From Leptothrix sp. (in: b-proteobacteria) (GTDB lineage Bacteria; Pseudomonadota; Gammaproteobacteria; Burkholderiales; Burkholderiaceae_C), in NCBI GenBank assembly GCA_041083665.1, contig JBFPGZ010000013.1, positions 3,740-67,739 on the forward strand: a stretch of 64,000 nucleotides of DNA. The letters run 5' to 3'. Of the stretch, positions 30,980-59,013 are shown one piece after another. Numbering within the stretch: position 1 is the first letter of the stretch; each line of letters starts with the position of its first letter. The notes under the pieces were generated by a model. The model saw only the letters and a program-made list of their open reading frames with translations, did not search any database and had not been told where the DNA came from. The position numbers and the translations under genes are program-made.

Positions 30980-33022
30980 CTACGGCGCGCTGGCCTCCGG
31001 GCTCGGATGCCTGGCCAGATCGCGGTGAATCAGATTACCCAGCAACACCGTGGTCAGGCCGCCGCCCAGCCCGTCGGTGCCGCCACCAGCCACGATGTCC
31101 GGCACGATCTTGACGTGGCCCTTGGCCAGCGCTTCGGCCACCTGCACGACGGCGTAGTTGCCGGCTTCCATCGAGCTGACCTTCTGCTCGATCACCTTGG
31201 CCTCGGCGCTGCCCACCGCCAGGATCTTGGCGCCTTCGGCCTCACCGACGGTGCGCAGCACGGTGGCATCGGCTTCGGCGTTGATGGTCTTGGAGCGCGC
31301 ATTGCCTTCGGCGAACTTGACGGCGGCGCTGGCCTCGAACTCGGCGATCGTGACCTTGCGCTCGGCATCGACGACGCGGGCCTGGGTGTCGGCCAACGCG
31401 GTGGCTTGCTGCAGCTCCTGGCGCACGCCCTGGGCCTGGCGCTGGGTTTCGTAGGTGACACGCTCCTGCTCGGCAATCTTGCGATCGGTCAGGGTCTTCA
31501 TCAGCGCATCGGGCGGCACGATATCGCCGATCAGGGTATCCACGGCGCCGACGTTGTATTCCTTCAGCGCCGCTGAAATGGCATTGCGCGCCTCGTCCTG
31601 ACGCTCCGAGCGGCTTTTCAGAAAATCGATGATGTCGCTGCCCTGCGCGGCGTTGCGGAAATAGTTGCCGATGGTCGGCTCCAGCACCTGCGTGACCAGC
31701 GCGCTCATGTCGCCAAACCGGGCGATCACCTTCGGCGCGTCATTGCGCGGAATATGGATGATCTGCGAGACATCCAGATTGAACTTGAAGCCATCGGCCG
31801 AGCGCACCGTGATGGTGGACAGATTGGCGTCGAGCTTGTGCGCCTCGGTCTTGTCGGTGGCCCAATTCAGCACCACATTGGCGGTCGGCACATTGACGAC
31901 ACGGTGAGTATTCGGGTTGATCGGATACTTGCCCGGGTCGAGCGGATCAACCCAAACGCCTTTTTCGCCTTTCGACACCAGATTGCCGTGCTTGAAGGTT
32001 TCGCCGGTGACGTCCTTGCCTTCCTTGCCGACGTAGGCGATGACCACGCCGACATTGGCAATCGGCACCGTGAACATGTCAACCGCCTCGACCGTGACGA
32101 AGCGCGGATTCAAAAAATACCGCCCGGCCAGCAGCACCTGCTCCTGCAAGCCCTTGAATCCACCGTTGGCGATGAATTTATCAGGATCCTGGAACATGTC
32201 GTGCCCAGCCACCTCGCCGCCGGCAATTTCTCCGGTGGCCAGCGGCGCACCTTCCTTGGTGGTGGCCACGCCGATCTTGTTTTCAGGAATATCGACCACG
32301 TCGAACAGGCGCACGTCAAACAGAATCGGGTTGATCCGGTAGTTGCCCGGCGGGATGATTTTCAGCTGCGGGCCGCGCTCGCCACCGCCGGCATAGAACG
32401 CGTTGGCATCCTGATACGAGTCGCATTCAACGCCGCGCGCCACGACCCGACCGATCGGCAGCGGATTACCGTCATGAGCCTCCACCACACCGAGCTTGCC
32501 TTGCGGAATTTCAGTGGCGTCGAAGAGTTCGACCGTGAACAACAGCGGGTTGATGCGGTAGGTTCCCGGAGGAATCACCTTCATCTGCGGACCGCGCTCG
32601 CCGCCGTTCTGGAGGAATGTGCGAGCATCCTGAAAGAAGTTGCAATCCACATCCCTGGCAATCACCCGCCCGCCCGGCAACGGTTTGCCGTCGCAGGCTT
32701 GCACGACACCGATCTTGCCTTGCGGAATGACGGCAAACTTGACCAGATCAATCTTGAACTGCCAGGGCCAGAAGCCGATGTGCAGCCCCGGCGACAAACT
32801 GTCGGCCTGAAAACCCGCTTCACCAGCGAGCGCAATGATCTGCCCATCCGCCATGGTGCGATTGTCACCGACGAGAACAAATTTCTTGGTGACCGAGCCA
32901 ATACTGTCATCCGGAACGATGATGACGCCAAACAACCAAAGTATTTGCCGCCATAACAGGACGCTGCCGGCAATCAAGATGATCGCTGCGATCGTGCCGG
33001 GATGGCTGATGATTTCTTCCAT
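30980..33022 (-). CDS. Flotillin-family (SPFH/band-7, YqiK-like) membrane protein with four internal tandem modules
   Basis: N-terminal TM segment. Four roughly 65-aa repeats fit the pattern 'IPxGKxGVVxxxDGxPLPxGRVxARxVxCxxxQDAxxFxxxGGERGPQxKxIPPGxYRINPxLF'. The C-terminus is E/A-rich coiled coil ('AEFEASAAVKFAEGNARSK...') like flotillins. Start placed at MEEI with a GGAGG RBS. Confidence 0.75.
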   Translation of the reverse strand: MEEIISHPGTIAAIILIAGSVLLWRQILWLFGVIIVPDDSIGSVTKKFVLVGDNRTMADGQIIALAGEAGFQADSLSPGLHIGFWPWQFKIDLVKFAVIPQGKIGVVQACDGKPLPGGRVIARDVDCNFFQDARTFLQNGGERGPQMKVIPPGTYRINPLLFTVELFDATEIPQGKLGVVEAHDGNPLPIGRVVARGVECDSYQDANAFYAGGGERGPQLKIIPPGNYRINPILFDVRLFDVVDIPENKIGVATTKEGAPLATGEIAGGEVAGHDMFQDPDKFIANGGFKGLQEQVLLAGRYFLNPRFVTVEAVDMFTVPIANVGVVIAYVGKEGKDVTGETFKHGNLVSKGEKGVWVDPLDPGKYPINPNTHRVVNVPTANVVLNWATDKTEAHKLDANLSTITVRSADGFKFNLDVSQIIHIPRNDAPKVIARFGDMSALVTQVLEPTIGNYFRNAAQGSDIIDFLKSRSERQDEARNAISAALKEYNVGAVDTLIGDIVPPDALMKTLTDRKIAEQERVTYETQRQAQGVRQELQQATALADTQARVVDAERKVTIAEFEASAAVKFAEGNARSKTINAEADATVLRTVGEAEGAKILAVGSAEAKVIEQKVSSMEAGNYAVVQVAEALAKGHVKIVPDIVAGGGTDGLGGGLTTVLLGNLIHRDLARHPSPEASAP
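31880..32740 (-). repeat. Four tandem roughly 195-bp (about 65-codon) intragenic repeats in the flotillin gene
   Basis: Repeated protein modules are listed above. The nucleotide copies are diverged, about 60-70% identical. Confidence 0.6.
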
Positions 33023-33333
33023 GACGCTCCTCGCTCCTCTCGTGGGATAGGGCATGGAACCTAACACGCATCGGGTGTCGTGTCAGCAGCCGCAGCCTCG
33101 ATCGAAGTAAGTCGAACCTCATCGGCAAGGATGCCCATCCTCATCGACAAGTAGACCTGTCGTTTTCGACCCACAGACCTTAGCCACCAAGCTCGCGAAC
33201 CGGTTCCGCATCGCTTGGGCCAAATGATTTTTATCAAGTCAACCCACTGAATCAGTGCAAATCAGGTCAGCAGATTGCAAATTTTTCACTAAACCGATTA
33301 GCATCACCCCAGAACACTCAGGGGTTTGCTCAT

Positions 33334-34011
33334 ATGAAGATCAGTCTGGTCGTTGCAGATGGTCATCAACTATTCAGAGAGGGGTTGGTCGCACTGCTGC
33401 AGCACTTGCCCGACCTGGAAGTGCGAGGCCAGGCCTGTGACGGCCTGGAGCTGCTTTGCCGGGTCCGTGAACACCAGCCGGACGTGCTGCTGCTCGACCC
33501 GGTCCTGCCCAAGCTCAGCGGCCTGGAAGCCATGCGCCGCCTGCGCACCGAACCGCTGCCCACCCGCATGCTGTGTGTCGCCGCCGACGACGACCCCGAC
33601 CAGATGCTCGCCGCCATGAACGCTGGCGCCCACGGCTACCTGCTCAAATGCGACTCCCCCGAAGGCTTGGTCCACGCCATCCGCAAGGTGCACGCCAACC
33701 AGCCGCACTATTGCAGCGAGCTGATGCGTGAATACATGCGCCGCAGCGGCACCCCCGCACCCGAAGCCAAGTCGCCCCTGCACTGCTTGACCCAACGCGA
33801 GCGCCAGATCATCCAGCTATTTGCCGAGGGTTACTCCACCCAAGAAATCGCCGACCAATTGCACCTCAGCACCAAAACCGTCGCCACCCACCGCGAACAC
33901 ATCTTCGAGAAACTCAAGTTGCGCAACGTGGTGGAGTTGACGAGGTTTGCGTTGAGGGTGGGAATCTCCAGCCTCTACTTCGGACGGTCCTATTCCCATG
34001 CGGATTACTAA
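33334..34011 (+). CDS. NarL/FixJ (LuxR-type) response regulator, orphan
   Basis: REC domain ('VLLLDPVLPKLSGLEAM') plus a C-terminal LuxR HTH ('LTQRERQIIQLFAEGYSTQEIADQLHLSTKTVATHREHIFEKL'). No adjacent histidine kinase. Confidence 0.85.
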   Translation: MKISLVVADGHQLFREGLVALLQHLPDLEVRGQACDGLELLCRVREHQPDVLLLDPVLPKLSGLEAMRRLRTEPLPTRMLCVAADDDPDQMLAAMNAGAHGYLLKCDSPEGLVHAIRKVHANQPHYCSELMREYMRRSGTPAPEAKSPLHCLTQRERQIIQLFAEGYSTQEIADQLHLSTKTVATHREHIFEKLKLRNVVELTRFALRVGISSLYFGRSYSHADY

Positions 34012-34119
34012 AATACGGGCGTTTGATCCATACATCGTCGTTGTCCAGCTTTGTTGCACAAATCCCATCGCCTGAGCACCTAAAATCTAGTGGCCAACTG
34101 CTCTTGGTGAAACAAGCGA

Positions 34120-58453: not shown

Positions 58454-58627
58454 ATGCGCATACGGACAACAGAGTTCTACCGCGACTGGATCAACGCACT
58501 CAAGGATCGTGCAGCACGCGCTCGCATCCAAGTGCGGGTTGACCGCTTGGCCCACGGCAACCCCGGCCAGCACCGCAATCTCACTGATGGAATCTCTGAG
58601 TTGAAGGTCGATGTAGGCCCCGGTTAA
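58454..58627 (+). pseudogene. C-terminally truncated RelE/ParE-superfamily addiction-module toxin (TIGR02683-like)
   Basis: 'EFYRDWINALKDRAARARIQVRVDRLAHGNPGQHRNLTDGISELKVDVGPG' matches the conserved N-terminal half of 'addiction module killer' proteins. It stops right after the GPG motif, where homologues continue with 'YRVYF...' for about 40 more residues. The antitoxin ORF starts 7 bp later. Confidence 0.6.
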
Positions 58628-58633
58628 ACGGTC

Positions 58634-58951
58634 ATGCCTAAGTCAAGCAAAAGCACCCCAGCGGCAACCAAAACGGTCGCTTACGACGTCGCAGAACAGT
58701 TGCGAACTCCTGAAGAGATGGCCGCTTATCTCGACGCCTGGCTCACTGAAGCGCCCGACGACATCGCTGGCATCGCGCGCGCGCTCGGCGATATTGCTCG
58801 TGCCAAAGGCATGGCTCAGGTCGCCAAAGAGGCCGGGTTGAGCAGGGAAAGCCTTTACAAGGCTCTCAGTGAGAATGGGAATCCGAGCTTTGCCACTATT
58901 TTGAAAGTCACCAAAGCCCTCGGCGTCAGGCTGCATGCTGGCACGACATGA
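58634..58951 (+). CDS. Addiction-module antidote protein (HTH, TIGR02684-like), partner of the RelE/ParE-type toxin
   Basis: 105 aa. 'DAWLTEAPDDIAGIARALGDIARAKGMAQVAKEAGLSRESLYKALSENGNPSFATILKVTKALGVRL' is the typical antitoxin HTH of this pair family. Confidence 0.7.
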   Translation: MPKSSKSTPAATKTVAYDVAEQLRTPEEMAAYLDAWLTEAPDDIAGIARALGDIARAKGMAQVAKEAGLSRESLYKALSENGNPSFATILKVTKALGVRLHAGTT

Positions 58952-59013
58952 AGGAAGCATCGTTCATTCCCCCGGACTAATCTCGCTCCCCACTGACATT
59001 GACGCCCGCCCCC

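Follow-up and report, generated by a model that had tools for sequence, protein, structure and literature searches.

Many hotspots of gene turnover in bacterial genomes carry no recognisable mobile elements, and the core genes that flank them show homologous recombination (Oliveira, Touchon, Cury & Rocha 2017, PMC5635113). A probable locus of this kind was analysed in a 64,000-nucleotide stretch of DNA, hereafter called the window, from a metagenome-assembled genome (MAG) of Leptothrix sp. (assembly GCA_041083665.1, contig JBFPGZ010000013.1). In this window about 28 kb of DNA separates two convergent phosphonate gene modules, phnCDE-HD and phnM-I. The 3'-3' junction between the HD oxygenase gene and phnM is probably a gene-turnover hotspot without mobile-element genes, the 28 kb being its present, layered content. 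As in the published hotspots, the bounding genes are conserved, relatives hold differing accessory genes, mobility genes are lacking, and exchange is presumed to proceed by recombination in the flanks. Unlike those hotspots, which are defined by pangenome statistics, this one is represented by about five distinct fillings from a handful of genomes and contigs, and we infer the flank recombination. The block also resembles classical genomic (pathogenicity) islands of the integrase/tRNA type in being large, atypical in composition, absent in relatives, and in carrying adhesin and toxin-antitoxin (TA) genes. It differs from them in having no integrase, tRNA or flanking direct repeats, in its composite origin, and in that the TA genes lie outside the variable segment. 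The locus is an ordinary example of a known phenomenon, and no concept is changed by it. It offers a clean, well-bounded case in which accessory DNA builds up and is exchanged at the 3'-3' junction of two functionally linked operons, leaving both undisturbed.

The HD/phnM junction in the window and in relatives

A gene map was drawn from the open reading frame (ORF) listing and from Pfam and NCBIfam profile scans of the window. The phnCDE-HD genes on the plus strand and the phnM-I genes on the minus strand converge, with a gap of 28,045 bp between them (30969-59013). The left module ends with the gene for a phosphonate-associated HD oxygenase (30393-30968, plus strand; Pfam HD; TIGR03276, 202 bits, model positions 3-176 of 179), and the right module ends with phnM (59014-60156, minus strand). 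The gene content and coordinates given for the block and the phn modules in an earlier interpretation made from the letters alone (the sequence-only reading) agreed with these scans. That reading had proposed that a block of lower GC content was inserted next to or within an ancestral phn locus. Insertion relative to the ancestral locus was upheld by the synteny of relatives and by base composition. As to its placement, the block lies between the modules and splits no gene, and the sole damage is the replacement of about the last 10 codons of HD.

Relatives were collected in two ways. A genome scan with PhnM as query, limited to a single genome for each species, gave 42 loci whose synteny was compared by tblastn, and a metagenome scan used the HD protein as query. 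The closest loci in the genome scan belonged to Sphaerotilaceae-type Burkholderiales (Pseudaquabacterium, Rhizobacter, Roseateles, Caldimonas). In four loci (L003, L004, L009 and L010) phnI-M converge on HD-phnEDC at a distance of 36-1772 bp, and in a fifth (L026) the distance is 9 kb. The metagenome scan gave 19 convergent loci, 10 of them with less than 100 bp between the matched segments. Overall, at least 20 related Burkholderiales loci have modules that converge with 1-100 bp, or 0.5-2.3 kb, between them, and in the tight junctions that were read the stop codons of HD and phnM nearly touch (for example, TGA-C-TCA in L051). No convergent locus of the two scans contained any block gene. Some relatives have small, unrelated fillers at this junction, namely DUF4397 lipoproteins (L004, L009) or a BTAD-AAA regulator with DUF1800/DUF1501 genes. 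Because the site is empty or nearly so in relatives and the composition of every block gene is atypical, the DNA between the modules was inserted, and a tight 3'-3' HD/phnM junction is the ancestral state.

The arrangement of the two modules differs among more distant groups. In Comamonadaceae and Alcaligenaceae relatives (L014-L025, L029) phnCDE-HD follows phnM on the same strand, and in the Sphaerotilaceae-like group (L003, L004, L009, L051-L128) the phnCDE-HD module is inverted, which gives the convergent junction. On this gene-order evidence, an old inversion would have created a permissive 3'-3' junction.

The most informative comparison was with a close relative. A protein identical to the antitoxin of the window is encoded on six other contigs (L131-L136), the longest of which, L131, extends over 19.4 kb. 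Positions 1-284 of L131 correspond to window 30654-30937, the 3' part of HD, with 95% identity; positions 9601-9874 correspond to window 58353-58626, the region upstream of the TA genes and the N-terminus of the toxin, with 97.4% identity; and positions 9994-15381 correspond to window 58627-64000, from the antitoxin through phnI, with 93% identity. Between the matched segments L131 carries an unrelated cargo of 9.3 kb (285-9600) where the window has 27.4 kb. The L131 cargo encodes an HNH protein, a hydrolase, a sigma-54 response regulator, a dCache sensor kinase, a CMD protein and an NMT1-type ABC transporter. Its composition, too, is foreign (GC content at third codon positions, GC3, 0.52-0.76; GC 50-63%), and it holds no mobility genes. 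No two-partner secretion (tps), fn3 or SPFH genes were found in L131-L136. The same interval thus holds differing accessory genes from one genome to the next: 27.4 kb in the window, 9.3 kb in L131, 9 kb in L026, DUF4397 genes in L004 and L009, and little or nothing in many others.

These alignments confine the variable segment of the window to 30938-58352 (27,415 bp), less than the whole 28 kb. The left breakpoint lies at 30938-30962, within the last HD codons, where the 94-95% identity to L131 and to a second contig (L048) stops at 30937; L048, a contig of 901 bp, independently shows the L131-type left junction. The HD protein of the relatives has a conserved tail of the form T(R/K)xxIGAxxxA, and that of the window ends in HTNMV. 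About 10 HD codons have been replaced, yet the TIGR03276 domain is essentially complete. The right breakpoint lies at 58352, 20 bp beyond the stop codon of the fn3 gene (58331), and homology to L131 resumes there.

The base composition of the block is distinct from that of its surroundings. The block has 59.6% GC against 68.0-69.4% in the flanks, the latter close to the 68-70% that had been given for the flanking phn genes, and forms a trough between 31 and 59 kb in a window of about 68-70%. GC3 was 0.61-0.81 for six block genes versus 0.85-0.92 for 19 native genes (Mann-Whitney p=1.5e-4), and the correlation of tetranucleotide usage with the native flanks was 0.66-0.76 in the block versus 0.77-0.95 outside. 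Since third-position GC is also lower, the gap in GC content between block and flanks is not solely an effect of amino acid composition. The lower-GC block described by the sequence-only reading was therefore confirmed by all three profiles; the values of about 52% for tpsB2 and about 50% for the tpsA2-fn3 intergenic region were too low, the measured values being 54.5% and 54.3%. Within the block, the SPFH (0.78), response regulator (0.81) and fn3 (0.79) genes form one GC3 group at 0.78-0.81 and the tps genes another at 0.61-0.70, with tpsB2 at 0.61 and values along tpsA2 of 0.61-0.82; the antitoxin gene has 0.62. Because the values split into two groups, the block therefore has at least two origins or ages.

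Parts of the cargo were also found separately elsewhere. The SPFH/flotillin-like gene (30980-33067, minus strand; 695 amino acids; Pfam Band_7, 98.6 bits), whose stop codon is 11 bp beyond that of HD, encodes a protein 70-71% identical over 93-95% of its length to products of genes on large Ralstonia insidiosa/pickettii plasmids. The plasmid homologues adjoin PRTRC, radA and H-NS genes, and the window gene is of this plasmid type; a PDB sequence search with the protein gave no match. The fn3 gene (57684-58331, plus strand; Pfam fn3, 30.1 bits) belongs to a module that comprises part of a 22-bp repeat array, the promoter region and the gene itself (57293-58332, plus strand) and that has 87% nucleotide identity to part of another contig (L137). 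This homology runs from a point within the array to the fn3 stop codon, and the sequence beyond it in L137 is unrelated on either side, so the module is a unit distributed on its own. No match to the fn3 protein was found in plasmids or phages, and only generic fn3 domains were matched in the PDB. The different neighbours of the fn3 module in L137, the plasmid type of the SPFH gene and the heterogeneous GC3 show that the 27.4-kb cargo is itself a mosaic.

The toxin-antitoxin cassette and the 40-bp repeat

The TA genes lie to the right of the variable segment. The RelE/ParE toxin gene (58454-58627, plus strand) retains 57 of about 97 codons and matches TIGR02683 over model positions 2-57 of 95 with 58.9 bits, below the cut-off of 62.85; compared with the intact toxin gene of L131, a clean 119-bp deletion leads to a premature stop. 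Directly downstream, the HigA/HI1420-type antitoxin gene (58634-58951, plus strand) is intact (PF21716, 99.3 bits; TIGR02684, 118.3 bits, model positions 2-88 of 89). The module had been called degraded, which is correct for the toxin and incorrect for the antitoxin. The pair resembles HI1419/HI1420-type RelE/ParE-HigA cassettes in its toxin-then-antitoxin order, in a palindromic operator in the promoter region and in its occurrence as a solitary chromosomal cassette, and differs from them in that the toxin of the window lacks codons 58-97 while the antitoxin is whole.

In L131-L136 the toxin is intact (97 amino acids), and the cassette adjoins phnM wherever the contig extends far enough. Another genome (L138) has a TA pair from this 90% cluster on its own, with alaS on one side and a GntR-type gene on the other, and nucleotide homology there is confined to the TA promoter and the two TA genes. 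A nucleotide search of plasmids with the fn3/TA region matched only the antitoxin, at about 68%, on Ralstonia megaplasmids. Because L131-L136 have the TA genes beside phnM without the adhesin genes, and because a solitary pair occurs elsewhere, the cassette is independent of the adhesin genes. It is a separate, earlier resident of the junction and part of the shared flank. The proposal that the TA module is what remains of a stabilising element of an adhesin island is contradicted by L131, in which the TA genes stand next to a different 9.3-kb cargo between flanks 93-97% identical to those of the window. A TA module that adjoins an island need not be part of that island, and in annotation "island plus TA" should not be read as one unit from a single genome.

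At the left end of the shared right flank, positions 58352-58391 match a stretch from inside phnM (59868-59907), directly oriented, at 39 of 40 bases. The repeat contains a hairpin with a 7-bp stem, GCCGAAG-CCA-CTTCGGC. It marks the right edge of the variable segment, is also present upstream of the TA genes in L131-L136, and is absent from the related cassette in L138; no third copy was found. The repeat may be the scar of a partial duplication of phnM. It is most unlikely to be a functional recombination site at which a recombinase encoded elsewhere swaps whole cargo blocks at the phn junction; if true, this would amount to integrase-in-trans cassette exchange for islands of tens of kilobases.

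Proposed assembly and exchange of the cargo

Several histories could produce a foreign block between two native operons. Arrival of the block in one event, as a single adhesin island including the TA genes as its own stabilising element, would fit a block that is contiguous, has lowered GC3 in every gene, and has its lowest GC3 (0.61-0.65) shared by tpsB2, the ends of tpsA2 and the TA genes; TA modules, moreover, often ride on islands. This history is nevertheless improbable, since L131-L136 carry the TA genes, with intact toxin and identical antitoxin, together with the 40-bp repeat beside phnM and without tps, fn3 or SPFH genes. The solitary TA pair of L138 and the different neighbours of the fn3 module in L137 also argue against it, as does a GC3 range among block genes of 0.61-0.81. 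A site-specific element, with the 40-bp phnM sequence as an att-like site, a recombinase acting in trans and cargo swaps as cassette exchanges, would account for a 39/40 direct repeat situated exactly at the right breakpoint in both the window and L131-L136, and not belonging to the TA cassette of L138. There are only two copies, however, and they bracket the TA genes and the 3' part of phnM instead of the variable cargo. The left breakpoint has neither a copy nor a related sequence, a recombinase gene is lacking, and a scar of partial phnM duplication explains the repeat equally well. Such an element is accordingly very improbable.

An artefact of assembly, with a chimeric contig that joined foreign contigs between the phn modules, would agree with the source being a MAG, with junctions of the window type having been seen only once and with the presence of the 40-bp repeat at the right one. 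It would require two independent misjoins, each returning to the syntenic position, although both flanks are equally divergent from L131 (95% on the left, 93-97% on the right) and there is no repeat at the left junction; the 40-bp repeat is, in addition, shorter than the final k-mers usually employed by assemblers. A chimera is therefore highly unlikely. Least credible of all is a 28-kb arrangement that was ancestral and was deleted in the relatives. The sole argument for it is the distance to the nearest relative that has an empty, tight junction (PhnM identity of only about 78-80%). Synteny and composition led to its rejection: tight junctions are spread over many lineages and genera, every block gene is compositionally foreign, and the closest relative holds a different foreign cargo.

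A gene-turnover hotspot at the HD/phnM junction is the favoured account. In the wider family the stop codons of HD and phnM stand 1-100 bp apart. A solitary RelE/ParE-HigA cassette settled beside phnM in an ancestor shared by the window and L131, which are about 94-97% identical. The interval from HD to the cassette has since come to hold wholly different foreign cargo in the two, 27.4 kb in the window and 9.3 kb in L131, and that of the window is built from units found separately elsewhere, namely the SPFH gene, the response regulator, the tpsA-tpsB pair and the fn3 gene with its array. The TA toxin was inactivated later by the 119-bp deletion. The cargo probably arrived via plasmids or relatives, and its gain or replacement most likely proceeded by recombination with an anchor in the phn genes on either side, as a double crossover or as homology-facilitated illegitimate recombination (for the concept, PMC3240628). 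This route is favoured because integrase, transposase, tRNA and terminal repeats are all missing and because the breakpoints lie in or beside conserved phn sequence. The site would tolerate insertion, as the converging operon ends hold no promoter or operon interior, and for the same reason insertions there should cost little.

The searches for other signatures of mobility were negative. No integrase or other mobility gene was found in the block, in which all ORFs were assigned and intergenic gaps do not exceed 849 bp and so cannot house an integrase, and no tRNA or tmRNA gene and no Rfam family match were found in the window. The two ends of the cargo have no direct or inverted repeats in common beyond chance (longest shared k-mer, 7 nt). 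PADLOC returned only matches at the helix-turn-helix level. Since both ends of the block lie inside the window, a search for an integrase or att remnant outside it is moot.

Several observations weigh against the hotspot and its proposed history. The right junction holds no recognisable piece of the displaced HD tail, local alignments there being no better than those of shuffled sequences. Identity of the flanks to L131 varies little (90-98% per 250 bp) and reveals no obvious recombination tract, and we infer the recombination mechanism from breakpoints in or beside phn sequence. The configuration of the window is known from one MAG contig only. Part of the GC patchiness within tpsA2 tracks amino acid composition and not origin. 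The nearest relative with an empty, tight junction is, at the PhnM identity given above, too distant for the insertion events to be counted or put in order.

The two-partner-secretion pair and other features of the window

Three quarters (75%) of the block consists of tpsA2 (35811-56834, minus strand), one unbroken ORF encoding a protein of 7007 amino acids. The product has an ESPR signal (47.7 bits), a TPS domain (PF05860) at residues 87-308 (43.5 bits; cut-off 33.5), a match to NF012204 adhes_FxxPxG (160.9 bits), and at least 27 LktA_tand_53 repeat stretches between residues of about 900 and 4000. Its transporter gene tpsB2 (34120-35814, minus strand; Pfam POTRA_2, 61.3 bits, and ShlB, 104.3 bits) overlaps the tpsA2 stop codon by 4 bp, so that the gene order is A then B. 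A stretch of about 50% GC had been reported in the middle of tpsA2. A trough of 50-52% does exist (40-43 kb), located in the C-terminal third of the protein (residues about 4500-5500); the true middle (45-54 kb) has 65% GC and coincides with the Ala/Gly-rich LktA_tand_53 repeats. No Pfam or NCBIfam family matched the last 2800 or so residues, no Pfam, NCBIfam or PDB match was found in the C-terminal 1000 residues, and TpsA2 has no VENN/ELYN motif. Near the C-terminus a 405-bp tandem repeat (36501-37694; 2.9 copies, 96% identity; Tandem Repeats Finder score 2171) in the 3' region of tpsA2 encodes a unit of 135 amino acids, and suggests a recent expansion or length variation of the fibre.

The pair shares with FhaB/FhaC of Bordetella and LktA/LktB of Fusobacterium necrophorum a TpsB with POTRA and ShlB domains and adjacent, overlapping genes, and TpsA2 shares with LktA-type proteins the ESPR signal, the FxxPxG (LktA) type of TPS domain and the LktA_tand_53 repeats. 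It differs from them in the A-then-B order and in a C-terminal part of about 2800 residues that matches no family; the product is a putative adhesin or cytotoxin. TpsA2 is about twice the size of LktA. Contact-dependent growth inhibition (CDI) loci (CdiBAI/BcpAIOB) also have a large TpsA and a TpsB on foreign DNA and a compositionally distinct C-terminal part, but the pair of the window has no VENN/ELYN pre-toxin motif, no Pfam toxin domain and no immunity ORF. Identity as a CDI locus was rejected on these grounds, there being no ORF between tpsA2 and tpsB2. From its domains, the main cargo is a type Vb pair predicted to export a giant surface fibre, most likely an adhesin. For sheathed, surface-attached bacteria of the Leptothrix type, a secreted filamentous protein of 7007 amino acids would be a plausible strain-specific attachment factor.

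A protein annotated in a Leptothrix sp. MAG is 100% identical to TpsB2, whose homologues at 57-66% identity are all environmental. All of the TpsB2-homologue loci examined stand beside giant TpsA genes (6.6-7.7 thousand amino acids) in unrelated neighbourhoods, and two of them also carry a response regulator and a kinase. In one locus (L043) the TpsA has 6696 amino acids and the tps genes again have a lower GC content than the genes around them. In another (L049) the TpsA is apparently split into 1140 and 6615 amino acids, and an IS5-like DUF4096 gene lies just upstream.

The window contains a first tps pair at 6669-16180, also in A-then-B order, in which a TpsA1 of 2596 amino acids with ESPR, TPS and GLUG motifs is accompanied by a TpsB of 574 amino acids. 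Its composition is native (GC3 0.91-0.92). TpsA2 and TpsA1 (6669-14459) are 27% identical, over the N-terminal 550 or so residues only. Since the two pairs are only 27-28% identical, they are not recent duplicates.

A NarL/LuxR-type response regulator gene (33334-34011, plus strand; Pfam Response_reg and GerE) lies between the SPFH gene and tpsB2, and no partner kinase was found in the block. Homologous TPS loci have a co-directional response regulator and kinase after tpsB, with only 27% identity to the regulator of the window. The intergenic region of 849 bp between the divergent tpsA2 and fn3 genes (between 56834 and 57684) holds the 22-bp repeat array, in which 11-12 copies of the palindrome ACCTGT-N4-ACAGGT occur in strict 22-bp phase (57170-57449). 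The motif gave 16 strand-matches against 0.1 expected, and Tandem Repeats Finder also reported a period of 22. The phase equals two helical turns, and the array is located upstream of both genes, at a distance of 336-615 bp from tpsA2 and of 235-514 bp from fn3. In L137 the fn3 homologue is preceded by a shorter array, and the motif is absent from the homologous TPS loci. A promoter and terminator scan of 56.7-59.1 kb stayed at background level. The array looks like a putative cooperative operator array or a set of iterons; that the nearby LuxR-type regulator binds it is only a guess. The tps pair is possibly under the control of this adjacent regulator and the array.

The native left flank comprises, on the plus strand, phnC (27682-28533; Pfam ABC_tran), phnD (ending at 29545; Pfam Phosphonate-bd) and phnE (29564-30379; Pfam BPD_transp_1), followed by HD, with GC3 of 0.87-0.92 (27682-30968). 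On the right, phnM is accompanied on the minus strand by the carbon-phosphorus lyase operon genes phnL, phnK, phnJ and phnI (to 63760; Pfam matches to PhnJ and PhnI), with GC3 of 0.85-0.92 (59014-63760). The longest phnM ORF (59014-60324) is over-extended: the family models align from its residue 57 (NF011984 PhnM, 510.8 bits), which places the real start near 60156, so that phnM only appears to overlap phnL because of the way ORFs are called. Searches for proteins identical to HD, PhnM and P0001 returned no match, probably owing to start-codon differences. The phnN, phnO and phnP genes are missing downstream of phnM, as had been noted, and are equally so in relatives; because phnM is the last gene there too, abutting HD, their absence is ancestral and not an effect of the insertion. 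Five further loci of the PhnM scan (L001, L005, L011, L012, L013) have PhnM-like genes whose products are 67-71% identical to PhnM of the window, with no phnI-L or phnCDE within the available flanks (10 kb on each side in three), and these genes appear to be stand-alone paralogues.

The region 16474-21597, which follows the first tps pair directly, encodes NAD-linked formate dehydrogenase-like molybdopterin, Nuo51-like and 2Fe-2S subunits. The two large genes of this group have a lowered GC3 of 0.74-0.76, and the tetranucleotide correlation over 16-22 kb is low (0.62-0.68). This region may be a second foreign or atypical patch in the window.

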